Positions 9,946 through 61,256 of a DNA stretch of 64,000 nt are shown here, in pieces. Position numbers and translations under genes: made by a program. The notes under the pieces are model-generated. The model did not search any database, was not told the origin of the DNA, and saw only the letters and a program-made list of their open reading frames with translations. The stretch's first letter is position 1, and each line of letters begins with the position of its first letter. The DNA is from a virus (taxonomy: Duplodnaviria > Heunggongvirae > Uroviricota > Caudoviricetes): the IMG/VR virus record IMGVR_UViG_3300022660_000063, positions 1 through 64,000 of that record; one strand, written 5' to 3'.

Positions 9946-9946
9946 T

Positions 9947-16816: not shown

Positions 16817-18088
16817 ATGGAGATAAAATTACCAAAATATGTTGAATTACTAATAAACATGTTAAATGAAAATGGTTATGCAGCATATGCAGTTGGTGGC
16901 GCTATTAGAGATTCTATATTAGGTATTGAACCAAAAGATTGGGATATAGCAACAAGTGCTTTACCTGCTGAAACAAAGAAACTATTTGAAGATAATAGTT
17001 TTCACAAGAGTGATATGGATATTTATTTTAAAGTTATTCCAACAGGAGAAAAATATGGCACTATGACTATTGAAGTTATAGAAAAATATAAATTAAATAA
17101 ATATGAACATCTTGCAGGTATTTATGAAATAACCACATTTAGATATGATAGCGATTACACTGATGGTAGAAGACCAAATAATGTAACTTTTGGTGAATCT
17201 ATTATAGATGATTTAGATAGAAGAGATTTTACTATGAATGCTATTGCTTATAACCCATTAGTAGGTATAGTAGACCCACATAATGGTGTTGAAGATATTA
17301 AAAATAAAATAGTTAAAGCAGTAGGAGACCCACAGGTTAGAATAAAAGAAGATGCTTTGAGAATTTTAAGGGGCATTAGATTTGCTTGTAAGTATAATTT
17401 TGAGTTAGAGAATGCAACAAGCAATGTTATAGCGGGTACTGGTAGTCTCTTAAAGAATGTATCAAAAGAAAGAATTACTGAAGAAGTTAAGAAGATATTA
17501 GAATATTCAAAAGGTAATTCTGAAACTTTAAATTCAACAATAGAAACACTAGCAGAGATATTTGAGATACCTCAAAACAAAGTAAGTAAATGGGGTAGTA
17601 ACCAGGTCATCATAGATATAGATAATGACAACCCACCTATGTTAAAGTTGTATTCAATATTGAATAAGTATAAGTCAATGATAGATGCAGAAATTTGGAT
17701 GAGGTTATATAAATATAGTAACCAACAAATCAAAGAGGTTATTAGCTATTATAAGATGTCAAAGTTTATGGAAGATGTTCAGCAACAAGATATTGTCCTA
17801 ACAATCAAGCAACTATTCAATAAATTTGAACATGCATACGTATGCAAGTATTTGGGTATTTACACAAAAATAGAAGGAATAGATTTGTCAGAAATTACAA
17901 GTCAACCATATAGATTACAAGACTTGGCAATAGATGGGCACTTTCTTCAATCTACATTTGATATAAGTGGTGAGAAGATAGGTAAGGTTCTTAATTTCTT
18001 ATTAGGCAAAGTTATGGAGAATTCCCAACTAAACACAATAGAAACTTTATCTGAAATTACAAGGAGATACTTAAATGGAGAAAATTAA
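16817..18088 (+). CDS. cca: CCA-adding tRNA nucleotidyltransferase / poly(A) polymerase family
   Basis: Head-domain motifs 'AVGGAIRDSILG', 'DWDIAT' and 'RRDFTMNAIAY'. Confidence 0.8.
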   Translation: MEIKLPKYVELLINMLNENGYAAYAVGGAIRDSILGIEPKDWDIATSALPAETKKLFEDNSFHKSDMDIYFKVIPTGEKYGTMTIEVIEKYKLNKYEHLAGIYEITTFRYDSDYTDGRRPNNVTFGESIIDDLDRRDFTMNAIAYNPLVGIVDPHNGVEDIKNKIVKAVGDPQVRIKEDALRILRGIRFACKYNFELENATSNVIAGTGSLLKNVSKERITEEVKKILEYSKGNSETLNSTIETLAEIFEIPQNKVSKWGSNQVIIDIDNDNPPMLKLYSILNKYKSMIDAEIWMRLYKYSNQQIKEVISYYKMSKFMEDVQQQDIVLTIKQLFNKFEHAYVCKYLGIYTKIEGIDLSEITSQPYRLQDLAIDGHFLQSTFDISGEKIGKVLNFLLGKVMENSQLNTIETLSEITRRYLNGEN

Positions 18089-18485
18089 GATATATGCTGA
18101 TGGTGCTTGTAGAGGAAATCAATTTGCAGAAAACATAGGTGGTTATGGGATAGTGCTTCAGTACCAAGATCAATATAAAGAACTAAAAAATGCTTTTCGA
18201 AATACAACTAATAATAAAATGGAAATTTTATCTGTGATAGAAGGGTTAAAAGCATTAAAAGTATATGATATTCCTATTGAAGTATATTCAGATAGCCAAT
18301 ATGTAGTTAGTACAATTAATTTAAATTGGAATAAAAAAGCTAATTTAGATTTATGGGAAGAACTGTATACATATATAAATAAATTTAAAGATATTAGATT
18401 CATAAAAGTAAAAGGACACTCAGATAATGAATTTAATAACAGGGCAGATAAATTAGCAAATGAAGCTATGGATGCTTTAAAATAA
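18075..18485 (+). CDS. rnhA: ribonuclease HI
   Basis: 'IYADGACRGNQ', 'MEILS', 'YSDSQY', 'GHSDNEFNNRADKLA' (DEDD plus His). Confidence 0.85.
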   Translation: MEKIKIYADGACRGNQFAENIGGYGIVLQYQDQYKELKNAFRNTTNNKMEILSVIEGLKALKVYDIPIEVYSDSQYVVSTINLNWNKKANLDLWEELYTYINKFKDIRFIKVKGHSDNEFNNRADKLANEAMDALK

Positions 18486-18498
18486 AAGGAGAGAACAA

Positions 18499-19056
18499 AT
18501 GATCTATAATAGCATTTATTTGAATAAAAAACATGAAAAAGTTTGTAAGGAATTCTATAAAAGGTTTGCTTACGGTGAACAATATTTAAGTTTGAATCAT
18601 ATTGGTGAAATAGAAGAGATGCCTAGAGATTATTATTGGCAAGAAAGAGAGGTATATAATATAATATTACCTTATATAAATTTACTTAAAAATAAAGGGG
18701 TAAAGGATAAAGATTTATATGGCAGATATGGATTTGTATCTCTAGTATATAACCTACAAGTAGCTTATAATAAAGTTAAAAATAATGCTTTAACAATTAT
18801 AAATAGATATGCTTTCCCAACTGCTCTAATAGAAGATGGTTCAGTTGATATCGATAGCTTAGAAGAAGAGGGATTAGCTCCAGGGAAAATCTTAGTTTAT
18901 AGACAAGGTGCTCAAAAACCAGATACTAGTCAGGATTTCTTAAAAACAGATATTTTATTTTCATTATCTACTTATGAAGAGCACCTGGAAACTGAAATGC
19001 GTAAAATGTATGATTTATTCTTAGAAGGATGGTATAAAAACAATGAGAAAATATAA
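18499..19056 (+). CDS. hypothetical protein
   Basis: 185 aa with RBS. Confidence 0.4.
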   Translation: MIYNSIYLNKKHEKVCKEFYKRFAYGEQYLSLNHIGEIEEMPRDYYWQEREVYNIILPYINLLKNKGVKDKDLYGRYGFVSLVYNLQVAYNKVKNNALTIINRYAFPTALIEDGSVDIDSLEEEGLAPGKILVYRQGAQKPDTSQDFLKTDILFSLSTYEEHLETEMRKMYDLFLEGWYKNNEKI

Positions 19057-19681
19057 TAAAATTGAAGCAATTTATGCAAGAGATGAAGAAACTAAAAAGA
19101 CTATAGATAAATATAGAAACCCAACTATAGAATTTTTAAAAGATTTAACTTGGCAATTTACTGAAAAAGTGGATGGTACTAATGTTAGAGTTCATTGGGA
19201 TGGTCATAAAGTAACGTTTGGTGGAAGAACAGATAATGCATCAATGCCTGCATTTTTAGTAAATAGACTAAATGAATTATTCGGTGGTAATGCTAATGAA
19301 GAACTATTTGAACAAAAATTTGGTGAAATGGAAGTAACCTTATATGGTGAAGGATATGGACCTAAAATTCAATCAGGTGGAGCTTATAGAAATGATGTAG
19401 ATTTTATTTTATTTGATGTTCAAATAGGAGATAATTATCAACCAAGAGAATCTGTAGAAGATATAGCGAATTACTTTAAATTAGATATTGTACCTATTTT
19501 ATTTGAAGGTCCATTAAGTAGAGGGATCAACTATGTTAAAACAGAAAGAAGAAGTGCTATAGCAAAGAATGGGCACTTGATTGAAGGACTTGTTGCAAGA
19601 CCTAAATTTGAATTGAAAGATAGATGCGGGAATAGAATTATTGTTAAAATAAAATATGAAGATTTAAAGGATATATTATAA
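19043..19681 (+). CDS. minimal ATP-dependent RNA ligase (Rnl2/Rnl5-like nucleotidyltransferase)
   Basis: Motif I 'EKVDGTN', III 'FILFDV', IV 'EGLVAR', V 'RIIVKIK'; 212 aa. Confidence 0.65.
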   Translation: MRKYNKIEAIYARDEETKKTIDKYRNPTIEFLKDLTWQFTEKVDGTNVRVHWDGHKVTFGGRTDNASMPAFLVNRLNELFGGNANEELFEQKFGEMEVTLYGEGYGPKIQSGGAYRNDVDFILFDVQIGDNYQPRESVEDIANYFKLDIVPILFEGPLSRGINYVKTERRSAIAKNGHLIEGLVARPKFELKDRCGNRIIVKIKYEDLKDIL

Positions 19682-19682
19682 T

Positions 19683-19892
19683 ATGAAACAGTTTATTAGA
19701 AATAAGACTTTTGAAACAAACTCAAGTTCTACTCATAGTTTAACTTTGGATAACCATAATAAAATAACAGATCTACTATATGAAGCTATAAACAAAATTG
19801 AAAGTATAGATAGTATGGATGAAGTATATGCAATTCTTGGATTAATGAAACGAGCAGAACGTTTATTACTAGATAATTTAGGAGATTATTAA
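19683..19892 (+). CDS. member A (short, 69 aa) of the 'MKQxIRNxTFETNSSSxHSL' paralogous family
   Basis: N-terminus MKQFIRNKTFETNSSSTHSL. Confidence 0.5.
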   Translation: MKQFIRNKTFETNSSSTHSLTLDNHNKITDLLYEAINKIESIDSMDEVYAILGLMKRAERLLLDNLGDY

Positions 19893-19894
19893 AT

Positions 19895-20767
19895 ATGAAA
19901 CAACTTATTAGAAATTCAACCTTTGAAACAAATAGCAGTTCAATGCATAGTTTAGTTATATCTAAGAAAGTTAAACCTTACTCAGTTAGTGATAAATCAT
20001 TGCACTATTATGGCAATGATTTTGAACTATTTGGATGTTGTGATACTCATTCTTTTGGAAGAACACCTTTTGAAGTTTTATCTAGTCCAAAAGATAAACT
20101 AAGATATTATGTAGCACATTATGTAGGTTTCAAAAAAGAAAAAGAAAGGTTAAAAGAAGTTGAAGATCTTGTTTATGAGCTTACAGGATGTTCTAGGGAG
20201 AAAATAAAATTATATTGTGAAGAAGAATACCCTTGGAAAAAGAAACCAGAAAAATCTTATGGATATGCTGGTATAAATGACACAGGCGAAGATGTATTTG
20301 ATTATATTGAAAAGAATAATATATCTTTGAGAGAATTTATCCTTGACCCTAGGTACACTGTTATTGTAGATGGTGATGAATACCAAGAGTTTAAAAAATT
20401 ATTTAAAAAAGGTATTATTGATTTAGATAATATAGATTATATATCTAGTGGTAAGCATTTTTGGATTGATGATATTAAAACATTTAGTCTATATTACATT
20501 AATAGATTTGTAAATGATGATGTTTATAATGAATTTATGGAAGAGATAGATAATTATAATAATGAATTTATAAAATGTATTGAAATAGAAGATGAAGAGG
20601 ATGTTGATATAAATCAATCAGCTATGATAACATTTGCATCAGTATTAGAATGTTTTAAGCATTTAACTTATGGCAGAAATATACCAATCAAACTTATTCT
20701 TAAAACTCATTCACTAGATGATTTTAAACCAATATTAAAATATATAAGTTTAGAAGTTGATAATTAA
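19895..20767 (+). CDS. member B (290 aa) of the 'MKQxIRNxTFETNSSSxHSL' family
   Basis: N-terminus MKQLIRNSTFETNSSSMHSL, then unrelated acidic C-terminal region. Confidence 0.5.
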   Translation: MKQLIRNSTFETNSSSMHSLVISKKVKPYSVSDKSLHYYGNDFELFGCCDTHSFGRTPFEVLSSPKDKLRYYVAHYVGFKKEKERLKEVEDLVYELTGCSREKIKLYCEEEYPWKKKPEKSYGYAGINDTGEDVFDYIEKNNISLREFILDPRYTVIVDGDEYQEFKKLFKKGIIDLDNIDYISSGKHFWIDDIKTFSLYYINRFVNDDVYNEFMEEIDNYNNEFIKCIEIEDEEDVDINQSAMITFASVLECFKHLTYGRNIPIKLILKTHSLDDFKPILKYISLEVDN

Positions 20768-20800
20768 TTATCAACTTTTTTATTTTTCTGTTAAAATTAG

Positions 20801-20829
20801 TTTACTTTTTAATCATAATCTTATATAAT
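20801..20829 (+). promoter_or_regulatory. promoter P4 (TTTACT, 17 bp, TATAAT)
   Basis: tttact 20801-20806; tataat 20824-20829; preceded by ttaaaa/ttttaa hairpin and a T-run. Confidence 0.6.
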
Positions 20830-20853
20830 ATTTATAATTAAAAGGAGTAGCTA

Positions 20854-21009
20854 TGGTAGTAGTAAAAGAATCTTATAATATAAATAATGAATTAGAACTT
20901 AATATATGTTCTACTTTTCTGTATATTTTATATAAAGATAAGATAAACAAAGGTTTAGCAAATATCACATTTGAAAATAATATTTTATATTACAGGGAGA
21001 TTGTATAAT
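20854..21009 (+). CDS. possible small ORF (51 aa)
   Basis: AAGGAG RBS then ATG; fills the gap between P4 and the PARP gene. Confidence 0.3.
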
Positions 21010-22177
21010 GAATAAAAAGTTAATATGTGTTACACCTAACAATAATAATAAGTTTTACAATATGACAGATCTCGGTGACGGTACTTTCGAAGTTGAATAT
21101 GGAAGAGTTGGAGCTACAAGTGTAAAAACTTCTTACTCTATGTCTCAATGGGATAAAAAATACAATGAAAAAATAAAGAAAGGGTATGTTGATATAAGTG
21201 AATCTTTATCTCAAGACATTAAAAAAGCTTCTTTAAAGATAGATGATAAAGATGTTAAAGATTTAATTTCATTTCTTATGAGTTGTGCAAAACAGTCTAT
21301 CAAATCAAATTATGAAGTATCACTGGACTCAATTTCAGATATTCAAATAAATAAAGTCCAAGAAATATTAGACGAGTTGAATGACTTGGATTTAACAAAA
21401 TTACCTTATAATATTATAAATAACTATCTTCAAAAGGTGTATACAACTATACCAAGAAAAATGTATGATACAAGAGCTTTTTTCTTAAAACCTAATTACA
21501 CTAAACAAGAATTTATAGAATTATTACAAGAAGAACAAAATAAACTCAACACACTTAAATCACAAGTTAATTTGAATACCCAATCTAATAAAATTGAAGA
21601 TATAACATTAGAAACACTTGGGTTTGATTGTAGATTAGCAACGCAAGAAGAAAGAGAATTTATAGCTGCCAATACTGATTTTAGAGTTAATAATCAAAAA
21701 ATATTTAGAGTTACAAATCATGAAACTGAGAAAGTATTTAATCCAGATAATCTTAAAACAAGACTTTTATATCATGGAAGTAGAAATGAGAATTATCTAA
21801 GCATTATGCAAACAGGGTTAAAAATTAGACCTAAGGGTGTTGTCTTAACAGGTTCGATGTTTGGTAATGGTATATATGCAGCTAATAAAGCAAGAAAAAG
21901 CATTGGTTATACATCATTAAGAGGTAGTTATTGGGCATCTGGCTCAAGTAATAAAGCTTATCTAACTATATTTGAATTTGCTACAGGTCAAGAATGGCGA
22001 ATTTTAGATAATGAAAGTTATAAATCTTGGATGGGCAGGATTACTGAAGATCAAGTTAAATCACAAAAATGTAATTCAGTATTTGCTAGAGGTGGTGCTG
22101 ATTTAAGAAACGATGAATATATTGTATATAATAGTAATCAATGTACTATTAGATATATAATTGAAATAAATAATTAA
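21008..22177 (+). CDS. poly(ADP-ribose) polymerase-like protein (WGR domain plus PARP catalytic domain, H-Y-E triad)
   Basis: N-terminal WGR-like 'FYNMTDLGDGTFEVEYGRVGATSVKTSY...KIKKGY'. C-terminal 'LLYHGSRNENYLSIMQTGLKIRP', 'GSMFGNGIYAANKARKSIGY', 'NDEYIVYNSNQ'. Confidence 0.8.
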   Translation: MNKKLICVTPNNNNKFYNMTDLGDGTFEVEYGRVGATSVKTSYSMSQWDKKYNEKIKKGYVDISESLSQDIKKASLKIDDKDVKDLISFLMSCAKQSIKSNYEVSLDSISDIQINKVQEILDELNDLDLTKLPYNIINNYLQKVYTTIPRKMYDTRAFFLKPNYTKQEFIELLQEEQNKLNTLKSQVNLNTQSNKIEDITLETLGFDCRLATQEEREFIAANTDFRVNNQKIFRVTNHETEKVFNPDNLKTRLLYHGSRNENYLSIMQTGLKIRPKGVVLTGSMFGNGIYAANKARKSIGYTSLRGSYWASGSSNKAYLTIFEFATGQEWRILDNESYKSWMGRITEDQVKSQKCNSVFARGGADLRNDEYIVYNSNQCTIRYIIEINN

Positions 22178-22191
22178 GGAGATATGATATT

Positions 22192-22656
22192 ATGTTAATA
22201 GTTTTATTTTTAATTTCTGTAGGTATACTTATATCAGGTTTGTTAGTATATAAACTAACAGATTATGGAGATGAAAATCCATATAGTTATATAGGTATTA
22301 TTTTAGGCATTCTTTTATCGCTTGGTGCTTTTGTAACACTTATAGTAGGTGGGATAACTATATCAGAAAGTAGTATTATTGATGATAAAATACAAATGTA
22401 CACTGAGGAGAATACAAATATCGAAACAACTATCACAGCTACAGTAGAGAAATATCTTGAGCACGAATTAAACATATTTGATAGTTTACAAGGTGAAGAC
22501 ATACAAACGCTATTGGTAGTATACCCAGAAATTAATAGCAATGAGCTTGTTAAAGCACAAATAGAAGTGTTTATAGATAACAATAACAAAATAAAAGAAT
22601 TAAAAGAACAAAAACTAAATATTCAAGTTTGGAAATTTTGGGTTTATTTTGGATAG
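22192..22656 (+). CDS. membrane protein (2 TM)
   Basis: Two hydrophobic helices at the N-terminus. Confidence 0.45.
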   Translation: MLIVLFLISVGILISGLLVYKLTDYGDENPYSYIGIILGILLSLGAFVTLIVGGITISESSIIDDKIQMYTEENTNIETTITATVEKYLEHELNIFDSLQGEDIQTLLVVYPEINSNELVKAQIEVFIDNNNKIKELKEQKLNIQVWKFWVYFG

Positions 22657-22666
22657 GAGGAGAGAA

Positions 22667-23306
22667 AATGAGATCTATTTTAATTAGTATTAAACCTGAA
22701 TGGGTTGAGAAAATATTTACCGGTAAGAAAATTCTTGAAATCAGAAAATCAATCCCAAAATGCAATCTGCCTTGTAAAGTTTATATTTATTGTACTCAAT
22801 CTACTAAGTATGCTTTTTATCATATTAAAGATGAAAGATTCATGTTATATAAAGGTACTGGAAAGCAAGTAAATGGTAATTTGAGTTGCGGTACAAAATT
22901 AAATGGTAAAGTAGTTGCAGAATTTACATTGCATGATATTGAAACTATTGATAGAGATTATAATGATTGGCTACCAAAAAGAATGTATGATATAATGCCA
23001 AGTCAATTAGAGGCATCTTGTTTAACTGAAGAGCAACTAGATAATTATGGTAAAGGTAAAACTTTATACGCATGGTGTATAGATGATTTGAAAATTTATA
23101 AACAACCAAAAGCGTTAAATGAATTTAAAAAAGACTTAGATTGTGATGATTATCCTTGCAATAAAAATAGTGATTGTAAATATAACTATTATGACACAAG
23201 TGAAGGTTGTTGGGCTTGTGGGATCGACTTTGATGGTGCAAATTGTATTTATAAACAAATAAATAAAGCCCCACAAAGCTGGTGTTATGTAGAGGAGATT
23301 AAGTAA
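22667..23306 (+). CDS. ASCH-domain protein with Cys-rich C-terminus
   Basis: 'SIKPEWVEKIFTGKKILEIRK' and 'GKGKTLYAWCIDDLKIYKQP' ASCH/PUA-like pattern; ATG 22667 after GGAGGAG. Confidence 0.55.
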
Positions 23307-23307
23307 C

Positions 23308-24042
23308 ATGTATGATTATGAAGATTATTATAGAGAACCATCAGAGATAGAAGATTTATTTAATGAGTATTCAGCAAAATTACAAACAATGTTAAAGAAT
23401 GAGATTGTAAATAATGCTAAGAAATATGATGTAAATAAAGATGAAGTTAAAACTATGATGATGGTTGCGAATGGACTTAAAGAAGAGTATGAAAAGAAAC
23501 TTGAAGATTTTGATAATGAAATAAGTAAAGCAGCCCAAGAACAACATAATAAATGGTTAGAGAAATTACTCCACACTGATATTAAAGTTGGTGATACTGT
23601 TTATAAGATATATTCAAATGGGTATACTTATCTAACTTGTCCTTATTGTGAAAATGGAAAAGTTGCAGTCACTTTAGGTAATAGAATAGAATCTGTTGAT
23701 TGTCCTATTTGTAAAAATTATAGACCATCTCTACCTAAATATGAGTATAAAAAAGTTAGAGTAAGACAATTAAGTATGACTCTCACTTGTTCAGATAAGA
23801 ATGAAAAAGCTACTCCTTATGTTGATAATTGGGTAGATACATCTAATTATCCTTTTAATAAATTCCAATGTAATTGGTGCATTAGAGATGAGAATTGGGA
23901 CACTTTAACATCTGATAGAACTGCAAAAACAGAAGAACAGGCAAAACTACTTATTACTCATATTAAAGAAGAAGCAATAAGTAAATTAGAAGAAAAATAT
24001 GGTAAAGATAAAGTTCAAGATATGTTAAAGGAGATTGAATAA
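23308..24042 (+). CDS. hypothetical protein with zinc-ribbon motifs
   Basis: CPYCENGK...CPICKN and CNWC. Confidence 0.4.
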   Translation: MYDYEDYYREPSEIEDLFNEYSAKLQTMLKNEIVNNAKKYDVNKDEVKTMMMVANGLKEEYEKKLEDFDNEISKAAQEQHNKWLEKLLHTDIKVGDTVYKIYSNGYTYLTCPYCENGKVAVTLGNRIESVDCPICKNYRPSLPKYEYKKVRVRQLSMTLTCSDKNEKATPYVDNWVDTSNYPFNKFQCNWCIRDENWDTLTSDRTAKTEEQAKLLITHIKEEAISKLEEKYGKDKVQDMLKEIE

Positions 24043-24043
24043 A

Positions 24044-25360
24044 ATGGTTTTAAAAGTATTTGAAGAATTTGTAAATGAAATTAACTCTAGTAATTCTAGA
24101 TTATATAAAGAAGCTGTGTTAGATAAATATAAAGAAAATGAATATGTAAAACAAATAGTTCATTTTATATTCAACCCCTATATTGTCACAGGTATCTCAA
24201 AAAAGAAAATAGATAGAATTAAATCTTCATTTATAAGTAAAGAAGATATACCAGAAACTTATGATATATTTGACTTACTTAATTATGTTAAGTTGAATAA
24301 CACTGGTTCAGATTCAACTTTAATTGAAGTCTTAAAATGTGCTATGTCTAATAAAGATTATTCTGAACTTATATTTAAAATAGTTTCTAAAGATATTAAA
24401 TTGGGTATTCAATCAACAACTATAAATAAAATTTGGGGTGATAATTTTATACCTTGCTTCGACGTGATGTTAGCACAAAAATATTTTGACAATCCAGATA
24501 AACTTGTTCCAGAAGGGATTCAATTTATTTTGACTCCAAAGTTAGATGGTGTCAGATGTGTTTTAATTAACGATGGTTTTTCAGGTGCAAAATTCTTTTC
24601 CAGACAAGGTCAGTTAATAGAGCAATTGATAGAACTTGAAGAAGAAGCAAAACAGTTACCTATGGGTTATGTATATGATGGTGAACTACTGTTAGATAAC
24701 AAAGATAATTTAGAGAGTAAAGATTTATATAGGGCAACTGTAAAAGTTACTAGTGCAGATAAAGAAAAAACTAATCTTATATTCAATGTTTTTGACATGA
24801 TTCCAATTACAGATTTTCAAAATGGTTATTGTAATGCGCCTGCATCTTTAAGAAAAGAGCAATTATTAAAACAATTTACTTTTATGAAATTACCTCATAT
24901 AGTTGACGTTCCTATCTTATATTATGGTGATGATAAACAGGTTATTACTGAACAATTAGATATTATAACAGCTGCTGGAGGTGAGGGTGTCATGATTAAT
25001 ATTGCAGATGCCCCTTATGAATGTAAAAGAAGCAAAGGCTTACTTAAAGTTAAGAAAATGCAAACCTGCGATGTTAAAGTTGTTGGTATGGAAGAAGGTA
25101 CAGGAAAAAATAAAGGTAAACTTGGAGCATTAAAGATTGAATTTATTGGTCCTGATGGGTTTACTTATCAAAATGATGTAGGTTCGGGTTTGACTGATGA
25201 GGATAGAGAGTATTATTGGGATAACCCAGATAAAATTTTAAATAAAATAATTGAAATACAATATTTTGAAATATCAGCCAATCAACAAGGTACTTTTGGA
25301 TTAAGGTTTCCTGTATTCAAGTGGATAAGAGAAGATAAGACTGATATATCAATGTATTAA
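24044..25360 (+). CDS. ATP-dependent DNA ligase
   Basis: Motif I 'TPKLDGVRCV', III 'FNVFDM', IV 'EGVMIN', V 'LLKVKK'. Confidence 0.8.
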   Translation: MVLKVFEEFVNEINSSNSRLYKEAVLDKYKENEYVKQIVHFIFNPYIVTGISKKKIDRIKSSFISKEDIPETYDIFDLLNYVKLNNTGSDSTLIEVLKCAMSNKDYSELIFKIVSKDIKLGIQSTTINKIWGDNFIPCFDVMLAQKYFDNPDKLVPEGIQFILTPKLDGVRCVLINDGFSGAKFFSRQGQLIEQLIELEEEAKQLPMGYVYDGELLLDNKDNLESKDLYRATVKVTSADKEKTNLIFNVFDMIPITDFQNGYCNAPASLRKEQLLKQFTFMKLPHIVDVPILYYGDDKQVITEQLDIITAAGGEGVMINIADAPYECKRSKGLLKVKKMQTCDVKVVGMEEGTGKNKGKLGALKIEFIGPDGFTYQNDVGSGLTDEDREYYWDNPDKILNKIIEIQYFEISANQQGTFGLRFPVFKWIREDKTDISMY

Positions 25361-25371
25361 AGGGGGTTATT

Positions 25372-25710
25372 ATGGAATATATTTCAAAGAAAGACTGGGA
25401 GTGGATAAGTGACCGTTTTTTAACAGGTTGGGACTTTATTTTTAGTAATGGTGTTATATCTATTAAATGTGATAAGTTTACGAAAACTTACCCAAGAGAT
25501 GGGAAATATGTAACATTAGATATTCATTACTTGCATTTACATGATTTATACATAGATGCAAGTTCTAAAGAGAATATTGAATATATTTGTAATGAACTCC
25601 ATAAGTCTAATTCAAAGAAAACATATTTAAAACTTATAAAGAAAAATTTAGTTTCAAAGTATAGTTTCTTTTGTTTATATGAATTAAATCAATTGGGTTT
25701 ATTGGATTAA
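25372..25710 (+). CDS. hypothetical protein
   Basis: 112 aa with RBS. Confidence 0.4.
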   Translation: MEYISKKDWEWISDRFLTGWDFIFSNGVISIKCDKFTKTYPRDGKYVTLDIHYLHLHDLYIDASSKENIEYICNELHKSNSKKTYLKLIKKNLVSKYSFFCLYELNQLGLLD

Positions 25711-25739
25711 ACTGTATAATTATATAGGAGAATTTATAT

Positions 25740-26288
25740 ATGCATAAATTTACAAGAAATTATGTTTTTGGTAGAGTAGAGTATGTAATAGACCATTTAG
25801 ATACCTCTAAAAGTTCTATGCATATGGATATTGACTATGAATATACTCGAATGTTGATAGAGGAAGAAAAGAATCATAGGTGCACCCAAATATGGAGTGT
25901 TATATTTCTTATAATCTCTGTAGCTTTATCAGTTTTAAATGGCGTTTGTTTAAGTGCAGAGTCATACACCACTTTACTTGCTAATGTTATAGCAGCAATT
26001 ATAGAAACAATATTTGTTTTATTAAGTTTTGTATTGATAGTTTATGCTGGCTGTAATTTGGATGAGGATTCCAATATACGGAAATTAGAAGATTTGTATA
26101 CTATGACTGATGCAGGACTTGCTCAATTTTTGAAAGCAAAAGAAGAATATGAGTTAAAAGAAAAAGCAAAGAATGATTTAAAAGCAGATAAATTAATAAC
26201 AGTATACGATACACTAGATTCTGAATTAAGTAGACAGAGAAAACTTAAAATAATATCAAGTATTATAAAAGAAATGGAGAATGAATAA
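25740..26288 (+). CDS. membrane protein with coiled-coil tail
   Basis: Two TM helices then a charged helical region. Confidence 0.4.
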   Translation: MHKFTRNYVFGRVEYVIDHLDTSKSSMHMDIDYEYTRMLIEEEKNHRCTQIWSVIFLIISVALSVLNGVCLSAESYTTLLANVIAAIIETIFVLLSFVLIVYAGCNLDEDSNIRKLEDLYTMTDAGLAQFLKAKEEYELKEKAKNDLKADKLITVYDTLDSELSRQRKLKIISSIIKEMENE

Positions 26289-26882
26289 ATGAAACAAACT
26301 ATAAGATTAGAAACATTTGAGACTAATAGTTCAAGTTATCATAGCTTAGCCATTATTAAACAAAGTAAAGAAACTAAAAATGCAAGAGAAATAATTCCAG
26401 GACAAGATTTAGAGATAACAAGTAAAGTTTCTAGAAGGACAATGGGGTGGACAAGCTCATATCAATTTACCGCAAGAAGTACTTTTGATAAAGCACAAAC
26501 CTTGTTAAGATTTATTGCATCAGAAGTAGATGATCAATGTGATGAAATAGTAAAAGAATCAGAGTATACTAACTATGACGAGCCTAAATATTTAGAAGAT
26601 TATTATGATAGTAAAGGTTGTCATCACATAAAAACAAATCCAAAAAGATGTGATTATGAACTTAGAAGAAAACTTATGGATGAAAGATTTTATGAAGTAC
26701 CTTTAATCAAAGCATTTGTGAATGCAATAAAGAAATATATCGGTGAAGATAAACAAGTAATTATTCCAGAAAAAAGAGATTTAGAGCATCTGTATGATGA
26801 AGGTAAAGGATTAGATGATTTATTAATGATTCCAAGCTACGAACTTAAAAATGTAGAATTACTCACAAAGAAATTTTATTAA
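26289..26882 (+). CDS. member C (197 aa) of the 'MKQxIRNxTFETNSSSxHSL' family
   Basis: N-terminus MKQTIRLETFETNSSSYHSL. Confidence 0.5.
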   Translation: MKQTIRLETFETNSSSYHSLAIIKQSKETKNAREIIPGQDLEITSKVSRRTMGWTSSYQFTARSTFDKAQTLLRFIASEVDDQCDEIVKESEYTNYDEPKYLEDYYDSKGCHHIKTNPKRCDYELRRKLMDERFYEVPLIKAFVNAIKKYIGEDKQVIIPEKRDLEHLYDEGKGLDDLLMIPSYELKNVELLTKKFY

Positions 26883-26966
26883 ATAATATTTGACCCAGAT
26901 TATATACTGCAAGAAGATTGTGAAAGTAATGAATAATAAAATTTAAAGTAAACTAGTTAAAATTAG

Positions 26967-26995
26967 TTTACTTTTTCTTTTTATTGATATATAAT
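26967..26995 (+). promoter_or_regulatory. promoter P5 (TTTACT, 17 bp, TATAAT) with inverted repeat GTAAACTA..TAGTTTAC
   Basis: tttact 26967-26972; tataat 26990-26995; inverted repeat 26948-26955 / 26964-26971. Confidence 0.6.
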
Positions 26996-27028
26996 ATTAA
27001 TGTATATATAAATAAAGGAGAAAAAACT

Positions 27029-27336
27029 ATGTTAGATGCAGCATACATAAAAATAAACATTATACATTGCATAAAGATTCTTATGCTAATAATGGTTCAT
27101 TAGCGGTATTTTTATCAGATAACAAGGAAATGATAGCAGTATTAACAGTAAATATAGATGCTAGTGATTGTATAGGTGATGAAGCATGTGCTTATATAGA
27201 TACTAACAATATCCCATGGGTTGAGGATTTTTTACAAGAGAATAAAATAGCTTATCCGACAGGTGAGTATGGATTTAGTGGGTTCTGTGCTTACCCTTTA
27301 TATAGATTTGATTTAAGTAAACTCGAGGAGGTTTAA
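27029..27336 (+). CDS. hypothetical protein; apparent frameshift in an A5 run (27048-27052) between the RBS-proximal ATG 27029 and the long ORF 27067..27336
   Basis: AAAGGAG then ATG 27029 opens a 23-codon ORF; one extra A in the run would fuse it to the 89-aa ORF in the neighbouring frame. Confidence 0.35.
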
Positions 27337-27340
27337 TAAT

Positions 27341-27658
27341 ATGGATAGAACATATGTAGTATGTCAAGAATGGGATTATTACGATAAACATGAAAAATGT
27401 GTGATAACATATACATCTGCTGATATTGAAGATTATGATGGTTACAATATGATAGGACATAAAGGTTTTGAAGGATGTAGTATTGACATATATCCAACAT
27501 TAGAAGAAGCTATAATTAAGTCTCATTTTAATCCACAGGCTATTGATTTTCAACTAGATGAAAAAGATTTAATAGAAGCAAAAGATATAATTTCAAGATA
27601 TGATTGGAGTTATGAAAAAGGATTAATTAAAAAAGGAGATGAAGATGCAATTAACTAA
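27341..27658 (+). CDS. hypothetical protein
   Basis: GAGGAGG RBS; 105 aa. Confidence 0.4.
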   Translation: MDRTYVVCQEWDYYDKHEKCVITYTSADIEDYDGYNMIGHKGFEGCSIDIYPTLEEAIIKSHFNPQAIDFQLDEKDLIEAKDIISRYDWSYEKGLIKKGDEDAIN

Positions 27659-27998
27659 AGAATCAATATTAATAGATACCCAACCAGGTTTTGCTTTTAT
27701 GCTTCATTATAACTGGGAAAAAGGAGTTATCTGGTTATCTAAGAATAGTTCCAAGAGTAAAAAAGTTAGATTAACTACAAAAGATGTTTATATAAGTGAA
27801 GGTGAAAAGGATAAATTTTATAGATCTAGAACTGGATACGGTCCTGATGTCGAACTAGGTTTGCTTAAACCTTGTTCTTATATAACCAAAAAAGATAATG
27901 AAAATATATTTAATTATTGGGTAAAATTTATGTATGATAGATATATGAATCTTAAACACAAGCAAGAAGTTATAGATAAAGGAGTTTATAATGGATAA
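27645..27998 (+). CDS. hypothetical protein
   Basis: Second ATG (27645) has proper RBS spacing. Confidence 0.4.
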   Translation: MQLTKESILIDTQPGFAFMLHYNWEKGVIWLSKNSSKSKKVRLTTKDVYISEGEKDKFYRSRTGYGPDVELGLLKPCSYITKKDNENIFNYWVKFMYDRYMNLKHKQEVIDKGVYNG

Positions 27999-28081
27999 AT
28001 ATTTAGATAAAGTAGAGAAGAATGGTTCTTTCAAGAAAAATTATTTTCTTGAAAAAGTAGAATTATATGAGGAGGAAGAAA

Positions 28082-29236
28082 ATGCTTAAAACTATTCAAT
28101 TTATGAAGAGTCATGAAAATTGGAGAGAGTTGCTACAAGCTGCTCCTTATAATTTATTCATAAACGAAGATGAAAATTATGTATTATTAAAATATAATCA
28201 AATAAACTCAGATTTTAATGAAGATATATGCAGAGAATGTAGAGGTCTTATTATAGACAAAAATATTTTAGAGCCAGCAGCTTTATCTTTCTATAAATTT
28301 TTTAATGTCCAAGAAAGTTTTGCTGATAAGATAGACTGGGATAGTGCAAAAGTATTAGAAAAAGTAGATGGATCTAAGATGCTTGTGTGGTATGATGATT
28401 ACTTACATAAATGGAGGGTGTCTACTTCAAGTGAATTAGATGCAAGTAATGCTCCTGTTGGAGACTTTGGAATATCTTTTAGAGATTTATTTGACAGAGC
28501 TCTCTCAAATTATACTTTTCCAAACAATTCTTCTATGTTTGAATGCTTGAATAGATTATACTGCTATACATTTGAATTAGTAACTCCAGAATCTAGAGTA
28601 GTTGTTCCATATAGAAAAGATGCTTTATACTTGATTGGCGTAAGATGCAAATTCGCATTTGAAGAGTTAGATCCAAATTCTCTTGAGTTGAGTAAATTTA
28701 TTAAAACTCCAAAACAATTTCCTTTTCAAAATTTAAAAGAATGCTTGAATAGAGTAGAATATATGGGCTATGATGAAGAAGGATTTGTTGTAGTAGATAA
28801 ATATTGGAAAAGAATTAAGATTAAATCACCTGCATACGTAGCTGCACATTATTTAAAAAATAATGGAGTTAATTCAAGAGCAAAAATTCTTTCAATTATA
28901 GAAAAGAATGAGCAATCAGAATTTTTAGGACTATTCCCAGAATATACTGATTTATTTAATGAAATAGAAACTAAATATAAAGAAATGCAAAATAAAATAT
29001 ATGATGCTATTGATGATATGTTATTTAAAAGTAATACTTTCCTCTATGAAAATGAAAAAGAAAAACGAAAAGAACTAGCTAATTATATTTTAACTGAACA
29101 TAAAGACTTATCAGGGTTTCTATTTAAATATTTAGATATAGACCCAATAGAATATTTTATAAAGCAAGAATGGAAAGAATTATCTAAAGATAAGAAAATG
29201 AATTTATTAGGTTATAAATTAGAAAAAGAAGATTAA
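28082..29236 (+). CDS. RNA ligase 1 (T4 RnlA-like)
   Basis: 'ECRGLIID' (T4 ECRGIMF), 'KFFNVQES' (KFFNLNENP) and motif I 'EKVDGSKML' (TKEDGSLVS); GAGGAGG RBS then ATG 28082. Confidence 0.75.
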   Translation: MLKTIQFMKSHENWRELLQAAPYNLFINEDENYVLLKYNQINSDFNEDICRECRGLIIDKNILEPAALSFYKFFNVQESFADKIDWDSAKVLEKVDGSKMLVWYDDYLHKWRVSTSSELDASNAPVGDFGISFRDLFDRALSNYTFPNNSSMFECLNRLYCYTFELVTPESRVVVPYRKDALYLIGVRCKFAFEELDPNSLELSKFIKTPKQFPFQNLKECLNRVEYMGYDEEGFVVVDKYWKRIKIKSPAYVAAHYLKNNGVNSRAKILSIIEKNEQSEFLGLFPEYTDLFNEIETKYKEMQNKIYDAIDDMLFKSNTFLYENEKEKRKELANYILTEHKDLSGFLFKYLDIDPIEYFIKQEWKELSKDKKMNLLGYKLEKED

Positions 29237-29264
29237 AAATTTTAAAGTAAACTATGAAAATTAG

Positions 29265-29293
29265 TTTACTTTTTTATTATAATATTATATAAT
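29265..29293 (+). promoter_or_regulatory. promoter P6 (TTTACT, 17 bp, TATAAT) with inverted repeat GTAAACTA..TAGTTTAC
   Basis: tttact 29265-29270; tataat 29288-29293. Confidence 0.6.
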
Positions 29294-29321
29294 ATAAATA
29301 TAATTAAGTAGGAGATATAAT

Positions 29322-29750
29322 ATGTTTGAATATGCACCAGATATTAAAGTCGGAGATGTATTTACTAGAATTGATAAAAATGGTAAAGTTTGGAAAGCTG
29401 AAGTTATTAACAGAACAGAGTATTTTGTTGATGTTAAGAAAACTCAACAATACCAAATTAAAGTATGTGATGTTGAACCAATAAGACAAAGGAGATTTTA
29501 TAATAGTACTTGGCATTCTAAGGATGTTGGCGGTGTGTTTCATTATGAAGATGCTGAACCTACTTCTGAAAGGGCTCAAATAAATATTGAATATGAAGAG
29601 TATGAGACAGGTGAAATAGAAGAAAGTATATGGGGTACATATAAGAAAACCGCAAAAAGACCTACTGGTAAATATTTTATAGCTATTAAAGAAGATTATA
29701 GCAAATATTCACAATATGATAAATTATATTTTATAGATAAAAGGAGTTAA
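29322..29750 (+). CDS. hypothetical protein
   Basis: RBS present; 142 aa. Confidence 0.4.
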   Translation: MFEYAPDIKVGDVFTRIDKNGKVWKAEVINRTEYFVDVKKTQQYQIKVCDVEPIRQRRFYNSTWHSKDVGGVFHYEDAEPTSERAQINIEYEEYETGEIEESIWGTYKKTAKRPTGKYFIAIKEDYSKYSQYDKLYFIDKRS

Positions 29751-29751
29751 T

Positions 29752-30129
29752 ATGTTAAATAAAATTTGGAAAGTAAAAGGAAATGAGATCAACACAGTAG
29801 CAGAAGTTAAAGATGCTATATATGGTATCATTCTAGAGAATAAATTTGGATCTAGTGTTTATGATAAAGAATTAATTACCGGTTATAAATTCTCTTATTC
29901 AGATGAAGAGATATTTAATAAATTAAATGATTTAAAATTGAATTATAAAATATTTGCTTTAAAGGAAATAAAACGACCTGCAATATTCACAGAAGAGATA
30001 GATAATATCATAAATGATATCGTAATTGAGAATAAAGATGAATTAGAAGAGTATTCGATTACTGAAACAAATATGGATAATCTACTTAAAAAGTTAAAAG
30101 AAAAATTGGACATTAAATTAAAGGAGTAG
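29752..30129 (+). CDS. hypothetical protein
   Basis: RBS present; 125 aa. Confidence 0.4.
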   Translation: MLNKIWKVKGNEINTVAEVKDAIYGIILENKFGSSVYDKELITGYKFSYSDEEIFNKLNDLKLNYKIFALKEIKRPAIFTEEIDNIINDIVIENKDELEEYSITETNMDNLLKKLKEKLDIKLKE

Positions 30130-30134
30130 TAAAT

Positions 30135-32066
30135 ATGATAAATGAATTAAATGAAATATTTGAAGCATATTTAAAGGCTACTGGAAAAGATCCTACAGAT
30201 AATTCTATTAGGTTTGGTGTTGAAAGTGATGCTCTTTGCCATAAAGCAAAAAATTATTTAGATATAGATAATACTGGACTATTAAGTGTATTAACTATGA
30301 GAGAAGCTTACAAATCTTTTATTAAAGAACATTACTATACTATTGAAGAATTACTTGATGGTAATTGGTATGAAGAAAAGAAAAAATTTGTTCATGTTGA
30401 ATATTTATTGAATTCAGGTAAAGCCGGAGAAGTGTACCATAAATTCATAGATTTAATCATTAAACATGCTTCAGTGTTAGGTAAAAATTATACAGAAGAA
30501 GATATTGAATCTATTAAAAAGATAGAAAATATCATAACTAAAGCTATTGAAAAGTTTAATAATAAATATTCTTTTAAGCATGAGAAATTTAGTGAAGGTG
30601 AAATTAAAATAAATAAAAATGTAACAATACTCCCTAGATTATATAGATTTCAACATTTAAAATTATTTGTAGATAAAATGAAAAATGCAAGTGAAGATAA
30701 TTTTATATGTATGGCTTTGATAGATAGAACAAACGAAAAGATTGAAGATGAATACTATGATAATAACTTAGATTCTTTCTTTGCTTTTGGTTTTAAGAAT
30801 AATGGTGTCGTATGGGTAGTATCAGATAGGGTAACTTATGATAGTCCTGAAGGTGCTTTTAAGTCTAGAAACCCTGGCAGAGCTATGAGAGATAAGATAG
30901 ACTATGATTGGTTACCTTATTATAAATTAGATAAGATAAAGCAATCAAATGAGCATGTGAATCAAGTATTATTACCTTTTAATGATAACGCAAAAGAAAG
31001 TGGCTATAATATAGTTGATCTATTTGATGATGAAGGTGTTATATATTCTACTTTAATAATGACTTTAATTTACAACAAATATTTCTGCAATTCAATAGAA
31101 GAAAACTTTAATAGGAAATACTTCTCGTCTGAAGTAAAATTATTACCACTCAATGATTCTAAAGCTTTAGTATCTTCTAATGAGCTACAGTTGCCTATTC
31201 TTCCGAATAATATCAAAGCAGATACTTATATCTATGAAGGTAAATCATATTCAAATTCATTATTTGATTATTTAATTGATCAATACCCATTAAAAACAGA
31301 ATTACCTATATTAAAAAGTTTTATTGGAGATAAGGAAACAGCTGAAAAATATATCTGGTGGAATATCAGAAAACAACAAAAGGATCATATAGAAGCTTGT
31401 TTAAAAGAGCAAGATAACTATGAAGGGCGTAAAAAATTAGAAGACTGGCACCAAAATAATATTTCTAAAAATATTAAATCCATAGTTAAAATAATGATAG
31501 AAACACCTGATAGAGATGGGTTTAAAGATAACTATAAGAATAGTTATTCTAACAATAATCAAGATAATAGAAAAATGTTTTGGGAAGCATTTAGAGATAA
31601 TGACGATTTAAATACTTATAGTTTAAAAACTTTTGAAAATGAGCATAAACAATCTTTTGCTAGATATGATGGTTATACTGAAACTGACTATGGTAATATT
31701 TACTATAGTTTATATGGTACGAGAAATTATATTTGGTTTGCTAATGACAATGATAGAAAGTACTGTGAAATAGAATTAATATTAAGAAGCCATAGCGATT
31801 TAGAAAAATTTTTTAATATAACAAATGAAGAAATACCTCAGGTACTGAGAAAACATTTTTATTCTAGATCTAGTGCATGTACATTATATTCATGGAAACC
31901 TTATACTGGAAATAGTATTTTAGAATTTACTGATCCAATGAATGAGATAAAAGATCCATTTGAAGATTTTGGGTGTCATATAAGTATAGTATTATCTAAA
32001 TCAAAATTAAAAGAGTTAAAAAGAAAAATTCAGATAAAAGCTCATGAAATTAATTTACTTTTATAA
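30135..32066 (+). CDS. large hypothetical protein (643 aa)
   Basis: Long ORF with RBS; no motif recognised. Confidence 0.45.
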   Translation: MINELNEIFEAYLKATGKDPTDNSIRFGVESDALCHKAKNYLDIDNTGLLSVLTMREAYKSFIKEHYYTIEELLDGNWYEEKKKFVHVEYLLNSGKAGEVYHKFIDLIIKHASVLGKNYTEEDIESIKKIENIITKAIEKFNNKYSFKHEKFSEGEIKINKNVTILPRLYRFQHLKLFVDKMKNASEDNFICMALIDRTNEKIEDEYYDNNLDSFFAFGFKNNGVVWVVSDRVTYDSPEGAFKSRNPGRAMRDKIDYDWLPYYKLDKIKQSNEHVNQVLLPFNDNAKESGYNIVDLFDDEGVIYSTLIMTLIYNKYFCNSIEENFNRKYFSSEVKLLPLNDSKALVSSNELQLPILPNNIKADTYIYEGKSYSNSLFDYLIDQYPLKTELPILKSFIGDKETAEKYIWWNIRKQQKDHIEACLKEQDNYEGRKKLEDWHQNNISKNIKSIVKIMIETPDRDGFKDNYKNSYSNNNQDNRKMFWEAFRDNDDLNTYSLKTFENEHKQSFARYDGYTETDYGNIYYSLYGTRNYIWFANDNDRKYCEIELILRSHSDLEKFFNITNEEIPQVLRKHFYSRSSACTLYSWKPYTGNSILEFTDPMNEIKDPFEDFGCHISIVLSKSKLKELKRKIQIKAHEINLLL

Positions 32067-32110
32067 GTAATTATTGTATAATATAAATAATTAATAAGGA
32101 GATTATAAAA

Positions 32111-32581
32111 ATGGATAAAGAATTCGAAAAACAGTTAGAGGATTTTTATCAAGGTTATAGGGATAGAGCCAACTGGCCTTTGTGCGATGGGATACGGGTT
32201 GACGACCTTGCAAGAGACACCGCCAAATTTTTTAAAAAATTTAAAAGCGTGCAATTTACTAATACTAAAGATGAGCAAATTAAAAGAAGAATTGCTATCT
32301 ATGAAAAACAATTTATTGAGCAAACCAATGAGAATTACGAACTCAAACAACAACTTGCAGAGAAAGAAAAAGAGTTTAATTGGCTACATCAAAAGTTTGC
32401 AAAATTTGTAGAAAGCAACCAAGATAAAATCTCATTCGCAGTAGAGCGAATTAAAAATTTAAAATCGTTGATATTAAATAGCTGGCGAAAGAATTATTGT
32501 AACTTATTTTTAGACGATATTGAAGAAATAATCGACAACCAAGTAGAACAACTCAAAAAGGAGATGATGAAAAGTGAGTAA
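32111..32581 (+). CDS. coiled-coil hypothetical protein
   Basis: Heptad-rich; RBS present. Confidence 0.4.
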   Translation: MDKEFEKQLEDFYQGYRDRANWPLCDGIRVDDLARDTAKFFKKFKSVQFTNTKDEQIKRRIAIYEKQFIEQTNENYELKQQLAEKEKEFNWLHQKFAKFVESNQDKISFAVERIKNLKSLILNSWRKNYCNLFLDDIEEIIDNQVEQLKKEMMKSE

Positions 32582-33062
32582 ATGTGTTAAATGCGGAAAT
32601 GAAATTTTAACAGGAGATATCCATTGGGAAATGGGCTTATGTAACAACTGTTATAATGAATTATATAAAGACCATAAAACTCATATTAGTTTGGATAATA
32701 TGTGGTTGAAACTTGCTCAAGATTTTAGAGATGAGAACGAAAAATTGCAAGACAAGGTAACCGACCTAGAAGCAAAACTAGTATTGAAATCTTCATTTAG
32801 TAAGTTTACATTATCTGACGAGTTATATAAATTATATATAAATTTGGAAAGAGAATATACAAAATCAAGCCAAGAAATTGCTGAGAGAGGTAAAGAAATT
32901 GAAAAATTAAGAGTTATGTTAGATACCTCTTTAACAAAACTCCATAAAGCAAGGAGGAAAATAAATAGAGTATTATTGAAAATAGCTAAATTTGAAGCCG
33001 AATTAGATAATTATACTATACAAAATGAAACTTTCTTAAAGAGAGGCAATCAGCATGAATAA
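32574..33062 (+). CDS. zinc-ribbon plus coiled-coil hypothetical protein (GTG start)
   Basis: CVKCGN...CNNC. Confidence 0.35.
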   Translation: MSKCVKCGNEILTGDIHWEMGLCNNCYNELYKDHKTHISLDNMWLKLAQDFRDENEKLQDKVTDLEAKLVLKSSFSKFTLSDELYKLYINLEREYTKSSQEIAERGKEIEKLRVMLDTSLTKLHKARRKINRVLLKIAKFEAELDNYTIQNETFLKRGNQHE

Positions 33063-34035
33063 AGATATAAAAATAATAGGATTAGACATAGCAGAAGATA
33101 GGTTACCTAAACTGGTTGTGATGTGTGGTTTGCAAGGTTCCGGTAAATCAACTATTGCAGAAGAATTGAGTTTGAAATATAACATGATTGTATTATCTAG
33201 TGATAAATTAAGAAAAGAATTTCCAGATGAGAACAATGAATTTATTTTTAGACGCTTATATAATCAAGCAAATATAGCTTTGAAACAAGGATTAAATGTT
33301 ATCCTAGATGCAACTAATATTACAATTAAATCTAGAAAACAAATATTTTTAAATATAAAAGAACCTTGTAAAAAGATTTGTTACATAGTAAACACGCCTT
33401 ATGAAGTATGTATAGAAAGAGTTAAAAAAAGAAATGAAGATATAAATTCTCATCAAGTTCCATTAGAAGTGGTTAGAAGATATTTAGAATCTTTTGAAGT
33501 ACCTTTTTATGAAGAAGGATGGGACAACATATTACTGTATAATATTATAGGGCATAATGAGTCTGTAGAAAATTTTAATAATATGATGAAATCTGCATTT
33601 GGATTTGACCAACATAATAAACATCATACTCAATTATTACATGAACATTTAGAATCGGTTGCTAATCAATTATATGATATAGATAATGTTTTATATGAAG
33701 CAGGATTATTACATGATATAGGCAAACTTGATACGCAGACATATAAAGAAAATGACCCTAATGCACATTACTATAATCATGCCAATGTTGGTGCTTATAA
33801 AGTATTATGTAATTATATGTCTTGGTATATGATAGAACAATTAGGAGAAGATTATCCTAAATATGATACTACATTAGATATAGTATTTTACATAAATTAT
33901 CATATGCATATGTATAATATTAAAACTGAAAAATCTGAAAGGAAGTGGAGACAAGTATTTGGGGATATAAAATTTAATAATTTAAAATTGTTAAATGAAG
34001 CTGACCAATTTAATCATAGTAAGGAGATAAAATAA
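33055..34035 (+). CDS. polynucleotide 5'-kinase (T4 Pnk-like P-loop) fused to an HD phosphohydrolase domain
   Basis: Walker A 'MCGLQGSGKST' and 'ILDATNITIKSRKQ' (Pnk-like); C-terminal 'HHTQLLHEHL....GLLHDIGKL....YNHANVGAY' HD motifs. Confidence 0.75.
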   Translation: MNKDIKIIGLDIAEDRLPKLVVMCGLQGSGKSTIAEELSLKYNMIVLSSDKLRKEFPDENNEFIFRRLYNQANIALKQGLNVILDATNITIKSRKQIFLNIKEPCKKICYIVNTPYEVCIERVKKRNEDINSHQVPLEVVRRYLESFEVPFYEEGWDNILLYNIIGHNESVENFNNMMKSAFGFDQHNKHHTQLLHEHLESVANQLYDIDNVLYEAGLLHDIGKLDTQTYKENDPNAHYYNHANVGAYKVLCNYMSWYMIEQLGEDYPKYDTTLDIVFYINYHMHMYNIKTEKSERKWRQVFGDIKFNNLKLLNEADQFNHSKEIK

Positions 34036-59931: not shown

Positions 59932-59932
59932 T

Positions 59933-61243: not shown

Positions 61244-61256
61244 TAATCTAAATAAT

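Follow-up and report, generated by a model that had tools for sequence, protein, structure and literature searches.

We have analyzed a 64,000-nucleotide (nt) stretch of DNA from an uncultured Caudoviricetes phage (positions 1 to 64,000 of the IMG/VR virus record IMGVR_UViG_3300022660_000063; hereafter the window), for which a preliminary description, made from the letters alone, had proposed an extensive RNA-repair toolkit. It is likely that the window carries, in an early/nucleic-acid-metabolism region, a phage-encoded gene set for the repair of breaks in RNA, most likely tRNA; domain identities, conserved catalytic residues and gene linkage were all observed. The genes named beforehand were all present as plus-strand open reading frames (ORFs), at or within 15 nt of the positions then reported, and had significant domain matches (Table 1). 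The proposed core, formed by a kinase fused to an HD domain (kinase-HD), two RNA ligases and a CCA-adding enzyme, was borne out by the domain searches as an end-healing, sealing and 3'-rebuilding set. The RlaP-family gene listed with them in Table 1 was absent from the initial gene list. For comparison, we have used four related phage contigs (L003 to L006), whose kinase-HD proteins were 47-60% identical to that of the window, and a further locus on a 223-kb contig (L011).

Table 1. Features of the window that bear on RNA repair. Where two starts are given, that in brackets is the metagenome gene-caller start and the coordinates are those of a slightly longer ORF.
Feature	Coordinates	Strand	Domain evidence
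Kinase-HD (predicted end-healing enzyme)	33055..34035	+	N-terminal polynucleotide 5'-kinase, residues ~18-160; C-terminal HD/HDIG phosphoesterase, residues ~185-320
Rnl1-like RNA ligase, divergent	28067..29236 (28082)	+	phrog_562 8.4e-46
212-residue RNA ligase, nucleotidyltransferase domain only	19043..19681	+	PF09414 RNA_ligase 2.4e-18; motif I KVDG
Class II tRNA nucleotidyltransferase, predicted CCA-adding, Bacillus-type, without HD domain	16817..18088	+	423 residues; PolyA_pol head 9.2e-31
RlaP-family Pol-beta nucleotidyltransferase	13809..14897	+	PF10127 5.6e-18, 66 bits versus cut-off 23; phrog_388 8.5e-50
RNase HI	18075..18485	+	PF00075 1.1e-25
ATP-dependent DNA ligase	24035..25360 (24044)	+	phrog_114 1.4e-92; DNA_ligase_A_M and OB_2
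Small calcineurin-like metallophosphoesterase	1969..2502	+	phrog_547 2.5e-43; PF00149 6.6e-7

A kinase-HD protein with reversed domain order

Kinase-HD is predicted to be a bifunctional end-healing enzyme, and as a member of the repair set it probably acts as one. The domain matches placed the kinase at residues 20-150 and the HD domain at residues 186-320. The kinase half matched AAA_33 of Pfam (5.1e-24), and the HD half passed both the Pfam HD and the NCBIfam HDIG thresholds (PF01966, 1.2e-5; HDIG, 7.1e-8). By sequence and by predicted fold (AlphaFold2 [AF2] model with a predicted local distance difference test [pLDDT] score of 91.5), the nearest proteins to the kinase were the Pnkp of C. 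thermocellum, Pnkp1 of Capnocytophaga and mammalian PNKP. The tRNA kinase PSTK was also among the top fold matches, with adenylate, deoxynucleoside monophosphate (dNMP)-type, gluconate and adenosine phosphosulfate kinases ranking lower. The searches therefore did not reassign the kinase to the dNMP or adenylate kinases, nor the two RNA ligases to DNA-ligase families, either of which would have refuted the proposed toolkit.

The alignment of 28 homologues revealed invariant residues in both halves of the protein: G25, S29, G30, K31 and S32 (GLQGSGKS), D50, R53, D85 and R126 in the kinase, and H191, H220, D221, H242, H283 and D317 in the HD domain. Kinase-HD has the Walker A P-loop and the catalytic Asp of the HD-Pnk kinase, and the H...HD...D metal ligands of the HD-Pnk phosphoesterase. 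The phosphatase of T4 Pnkp is a HAD enzyme (DxDxT), whereas that of the window enzyme is an HD domain; no HAD family was matched by the C-terminal half in the Pfam or NCBIfam tables.

Both modules of kinase-HD are homologous to those of the HD-Pnk/RM378 type, but their order is reversed. The HD domain aligned with the N-terminal HD domain of the Rhodothermus phage RM378 polynucleotide kinase (PNK) (hhalign 95%, E 3.3e-8), with the LHDxGK, NYHM and terminal Asp motifs in common, and the kinase domain was likewise homologous to that of the same protein. In our direct domain analysis, Rm378p110 has the HD domain at 35-94 and the kinase at 189-325. Rm378p110 is presumably the RM378 PNK of Blondal et al.; it was the sole kinase-domain match in the searched part of that genome (positions 20000-119999 of 129,908 bp). 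According to passages of PMC1997131 and PMC6097658, the HD domain is also N-terminal and the kinase C-terminal in the Deinococcus radiodurans PNKP and in the Runella slithyformis HD-Pnk. The HD domain of the RM378 PNK carries 3'-phosphatase activity, as stated in a passage of PMC1997131, and that of the Runella HD-Pnk is a 2',3'-phosphoesterase (PMC6097658).

The kinase-N/HD-C order had been called uncommon. This holds in relation to the characterized HD-PNKs that we have compared, which are all HD-N/kinase-C, but not as a statement of rarity. The order was found in more than 513 database proteins, the best 120 being nearly all near-full-length matches. Among deposited phage records, 118 matched; in 39 the match spanned 80% of the protein or more, and the full-length matches among the phage records listed belonged to Bacillus and Lysinibacillus phages. 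A limited literature search found no biochemical study of this order. Thus, the arrangement is reversed relative to the characterized enzymes, yet abundant in databases.

The ligases and the 3'-end enzymes

Judging from its sequence, the Rnl1-like protein is a divergent member of the T4 Rnl1 family. It matched T4 Rnl1 (2c5u) at only 1.4e-5, with counterparts of R54, K75, F77, K99, E159, E227, K240 and K242 aligned. The motifs ecRG, yKFf, eKvDGs, FElV, EGfV and riKiKs were in register with 2c5u and correspond to T4 R54, K75/F77, K99/D101/G102, E159, E227/G228 and K240/K242, so that the residues that define T4 Rnl1 are present. The divergence was also apparent with TIGR02308, whose curated threshold was missed (9.6e-13, 48 bits versus a cut-off of 242). 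PF09511 gave no match at E<=0.01, and homologues that are ~50% identical carry precomputed PF09511 matches.

The second ligase, of 212 residues, shares the nucleotidyltransferase (NTase) fold and motifs I, III, IIIa, IV and V with T4 Rnl2 and with the DraRnl-NgrRnl (Rnl5) type. Its AF2 model (pLDDT 88) was closest to the NTase domain of T4 Rnl2 (1s68, TMq 0.73), and the top ~30 fold matches were RNA ligases (REL1, NgrRnl, Rnl1 and Rnl3 included), with DNA ligases ranking below. Across 25 homologues the invariant residues were K42, D44, G45, E103, F124, D125, E181, G182, K202 and K204. The protein differs from Rnl2 in having no C-terminal domain: the chain stops 8 residues past motif V (K202/K204), and TIGR02307 scored 28.7 bits versus a cut-off of 197. 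It differs from Rnl5 in having no N-terminal OB module, the TIGR02306 match being confined to model positions 145-333 and the nucleophile lysine lying at residue 42. Motif I reads K42-V-D44-G45, with D44 invariant in the 25 homologues, and not KxHG, which is the motif I signature of Rnl2 and DraRnl (PMC1807946).

The small ligase belongs to a family of more than 7,900 homologues, the best 120 of which have 209-240 residues (nearly all 209-217). The family is represented in crAss-like phages, in Lak megaphages and in phages of Campylobacter and Streptomyces. The protein is unusually well conserved, being ~70% identical where neighboring genes are ~50% identical. We have considered whether the ORF 18499-19056, which overlaps the start of the ligase gene, could supply the missing N-terminal domain of a split Rnl5. 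This was rejected because the ORF has no Pfam or PHROG match and does not resemble the ORF at the same position in L004. An "AAA family ATPase" beside the small ligase of Campylobacter phage WX1 was likewise tried as a kinase-HD protein and rejected, being a clamp-loader-type AAA protein.

The predicted CCA-adding enzyme gave Pfam matches to PolyA_pol, PolyA_pol_RNAbd and tRNA_NucTran2_2. It matched the Bacillus-type model PRK13299 at 4.1e-73 (246.7 bits versus an equivalog cut-off of 290) and the G. stearothermophilus enzyme 1miv at 7.7e-41, compared with 2.6e-26 for poly(A) polymerases. Alignment to 1miv located motif A (GGAIRD and DWDIAT), motif B (RRDFTMNA) and motif D (EDALR, within EDALRILR), in agreement with the motifs and domains of class II enzymes. 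RlaP homologues, 55-58% identical, lie upstream of the CCA gene in L004 and L006. In these two relatives as in the window, RlaP is co-located with CCA, Rnl and Pnk genes, association with RNA ligase genes being characteristic of its family. RlaP adds one or two nucleoside monophosphates to 3'-OH ends of damaged RNA, which it prefers, and is needed to restore the function of over-trimmed tRNA (PMC12776372). On either side of the window RlaP gene, we noted a Band_7/SPFH protein (12149-13195, ~0.6 kb upstream, with one small ORF between) and, directly past it, a 181-residue ORF (14897-15442), possibly a shortened or highly diverged ThyX, whose match to the ThyX (Thy1) model is confined to the C-terminal 50 positions.

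Gene linkage, proposed pathway and alternatives

The Rnl1-like gene was upstream of the kinase-HD gene in all four relatives, with Rnl1-like homologues 48-55% identical. The two genes overlap in L005; they are separated by 33 nt in L006, by one small YafQ-like gene in L004 and by ~8 kb in L003. RlaP and CCA genes were found within 10 kb in L004 and L006, and L004 additionally has Thg1 and a 212-residue ligase. L011 encodes a full-length homologue of kinase-HD 2.2 kb upstream of the 212-residue ligase and RtcB genes, and Bacillus phage Thrax3 encodes a kinase-N/HD-C protein 4 nt downstream of an OB plus PF09414 (Rnl5-like) ligase. Thus, RNA ligases of different families recur as partners of kinase-HD, the classic heal-and-seal signature. 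As to the accompanying genes themselves, the Thg1-like 3'-5' polymerase of L004 spans 4048-4878 and its YafQ-like RNase toxin gene 9659-9991; the RtcB ligase gene of L011 (6636-7685) overlaps that of the 212-residue ligase.

The linkage of Rnl1, kinase-HD, RlaP, CCA, Thg1 and RtcB genes in the relatives supports a heal-and-seal pathway with 3'-end rebuilding. In the well-established paradigm, the T4 Pnkp plus Rnl1 tRNA restriction-repair pathway counters the PrrC anticodon nuclease. For the window phage, we infer substrates, an order of action and a counter-defense role as follows. Kinase-HD would heal both ends of a break, the P-loop kinase phosphorylating the 5'-OH and the HD domain stripping the 2',3'-cyclic phosphate or 3'-phosphate. 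RlaP would replace the one or two nucleotides missing from the 3' side of the break before ligation, and the Rnl1-like ligase would then reseal the stem-loop break through a lysyl-AMP intermediate. The CCA-adding enzyme would rebuild trimmed tRNA 3' ends. The 212-residue ligase could provide a second sealing activity, for breaks that already have 3'-OH/5'-PO4 ends or for nicks in duplex RNA. The earlier claims of "strong pressure" from anticodon nucleases and of a "complete" pathway were over-stated.

Several observations weigh against such a pathway. The repair genes of the window are spread over 20 kb among ~30 unknown ORFs and form no tight operon, but they are tightly packed and co-directional. 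Neither tRNA genes nor known RNA targets were found in the window, where an Rfam search gave no match. The C domain of T4 Rnl2 is required for nick adenylylation, and, when isolated, neither the T4 Rnl2 nor the DraRnl NTase domain is able to complete nick sealing (PMC1807946), so that the 212-residue protein may fall short of a complete ligase. This protein is also found in small phage or prophage contexts that have no other repair gene and may therefore act independently of end-healing. Finally, characterized HD-PNKs also act on DNA ends: the Munir and Shuman 2017 title, cited in PMC6097658, terms the Runella HD-Pnk a DNA/RNA end-healing enzyme, so that RNA is only a probable substrate of the window protein.

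The last point, together with the dispersal of the genes, would suit a set of unconnected nucleic-acid-metabolism genes, in which the DNA ligase is supplied with DNA ends healed by kinase-HD, RNase HI clears primers, the small ligase seals nicks in RNA-DNA hybrids and the co-location reflects only the usual grouping of replication and nucleotide genes in the early region. The interval indeed also holds the DNA ligase, RNase HI, NrdD, the ThyX-like fragment and many unknown ORFs, and both L005 and Bacillus phage Thrax3 have a DNA ligase no more than 2-3 kb from kinase-HD. However, the conserved neighbor of kinase-HD is an RNA ligase (Rnl1-like or Rnl5-like) and not a DNA ligase, and the accompanying RlaP, CCA enzyme, Thg1 and RtcB are all RNA-specific, so we regard this explanation as unlikely. 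That the CCA enzyme and RlaP serve housekeeping, maturing phage tRNAs or other phage RNAs and not repairing defense damage, appears quite improbable. The analysis covered 64 kb of the ~154-kb genome, which leaves room for phage tRNAs elsewhere, but neither the window nor ~100 kb of related loci surrounding the module has a tRNA gene, damaged RNA is the preferred substrate of RlaP (PMC12776372), and the CCA and RlaP genes accompany ligase and kinase genes. The best PHROG family of the Rnl1-like protein is labeled "RNA ligase and tail fiber protein attachment catalyst," which could suggest that it mainly attaches tail fibers, as T4 gp63 does, with ligation secondary. This is very improbable: the label is inherited from T4 gp63, the protein keeps all the ligase catalytic residues, and in every relative its gene is near end-healing genes and not tail genes.

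Within the favored break-repair reading, kinase-HD and the ~210-residue ligase could both be enzymologically new variants, a view that we hold only tentatively and consider doubtful. Kinase-HD would then be a domain-swapped relative of the RM378/Runella HD-Pnk, pairing with an Rnl1-like ligase here and with an Rnl5-like ligase in Bacillus phages. The ~210-residue ligase would have to ligate without an accessory domain or recruit a partner; it could, for example, directly reseal those tRNA breaks with 3'-OH/5'-PO4 ends that metal-dependent defense nucleases produce.

Neighboring genes and known systems

Three further genes had been counted as parts of the toolkit. RNase HI and the DNA ligase are present, but both are generic and do not accompany the repair genes through the relatives. 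RNase HI was not found beside the repair genes in L003 to L006, L004 having Thg1 at the RNase H position, and is probably outside RNA repair; the DNA ligase is a generic DNA replication/repair gene. The metallophosphoesterase gene is also present, but it lies 15 kb from the repair interval and is linked to repair only through L003, where a homologue with 54% identity follows Rnl1 0.8 kb downstream. Its nearest solved relative is Aquifex aq_1665 (1xm7, 1.3e-16), an uncharacterized protein, and we regard it as a weak candidate for an accessory phosphoesterase.

Other ORFs of the interval were also followed into the relatives. Between Rnl1 and kinase-HD lies a 643-residue ORF (30135-32066) without Pfam, PHROG or PDB match, whose homologues (34-37% identical) are just upstream of RlaP-CCA in L004 and L006. 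A 290-residue ORF (19895-20767) was considered as a diverged Thg1, given the equivalent place in L004, and was rejected for having no similarity. A tblastn search of the window with the relatives' Thg1, RtcB, YafQ-like, NADAR and 286-residue metallophosphoesterase proteins found nothing. The gene that overlaps the kinase-HD stop codon (34035-34703) had no homologue in the fetched loci around kinase-HD of the relatives (blastp, E<=1e-4).

A PARP1/2-like protein (21008-22177) with WGR, helical and ART domains is encoded in the stretch that separates the small RNA ligase from the DNA ligase. From our reading of the PARP2 alignment, its residues align to the catalytic His, Tyr and Glu positions of PARP. 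Homologues occurred in 16 of 50,697 phage records, e.g., Cellulophaga phi4:1 and Xanthomonas XacN1, and the gene was not conserved in the four related loci. NrdD (5681-8776), an anaerobic ribonucleotide reductase, has ATP-cone, NRDD and glycyl radical domains, and two of its NRDD matches flank an inserted GIY-YIG domain (residues 480-555). The arrangement, which L006 shares, suggests an in-frame insertion of homing-endonuclease or intein-like type.

Farther downstream, the region 59915-62993 is a classic diversity-generating retroelement. The variable repeat (61129-61235) is at the 3' end of a 442-residue ORF (59915-61243), the template repeat (61719-61825) is 85% identical to it and has A at every mismatch, and the reverse transcriptase (62127-62993) matched RVT_1 at 2.3e-20. 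The window also encodes a peptide deformylase (1250-1969, 3e-35), a radical-SAM/Fe-S oxidoreductase (35923-36951) that is kept in relatives, and a 489-residue protein (38567-40036) with a Cu/Zn superoxide-dismutase domain. A 544-residue ORF (54549-56183) with internal ~120-nt repeats adjoins a BspA-type leucine-rich repeat protein.

The window has a GC content of ~27%, and every gene is on the plus strand. The kinase-HD protein was found with 100% identity on many metagenomic contigs, including two of 154,398 and 154,395 bp that start at different points; hence the genome is ~154 kb and these contigs probably represent it completely. A megablast search with the 17-kb interval gave no nucleotide match to deposited phages, and a scan of IMG/VR queried with the Rnl1-like protein alone gave no confirmed relative. 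The contig of one relative was binned as "uncultured Clostridium sp." The lineage is uncultured, low in GC (27%), widely sampled and slightly under jumbo size, for which 200 kb is the commonly used threshold.

T4 likewise has an N-terminal 5'-kinase fused to a 3'-end phosphoesterase. Its Rnl1-family ligase shares the catalytic residues of the window protein, and T4 also encodes an RlaP (NrdC.11). The CCA enzyme and the NTase-only ligase of the window phage go beyond the T4 Pnkp plus Rnl1 set. The survey of jumbo phages by Iyer et al. 2021 (PMC7824862) found Rnl1, Rnl2 and RtcB ligases, polynucleotide kinase and HAD, HD or calcineurin phosphatases in combination, also with RlaP, a CCA-adding enzyme and sporadic Thg1. 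It mentions rare phage PARPs, and a passage of it cites Burroughs and Aravind 2016 for RNA-repair systems. Compared with the large-phage systems of that survey, the window belongs to a smaller genome (~154 kb, below 200 kb), uncultured and without nucleotide match to deposited phages. The gene set is thus real but fairly ordinary, such toolkits having already been catalogued in large phages, and it leaves the current understanding of phage RNA repair unchanged.

The most novel part is the enzymology of the permuted kinase-HD protein and of the minimal ligase. Both the kinase-N/HD-C enzyme and the minimal stand-alone RNA ligase are abundant and uncharacterized, and constitute two practical leads; the ligase may be of interest for mechanistic enzymology and for molecular-biology tools. 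With this gene set, a new uncultured ~154-kb lineage joins the phages that invest in tRNA/RNA repair, which fits host RNA-cleaving defenses as a common selective pressure.

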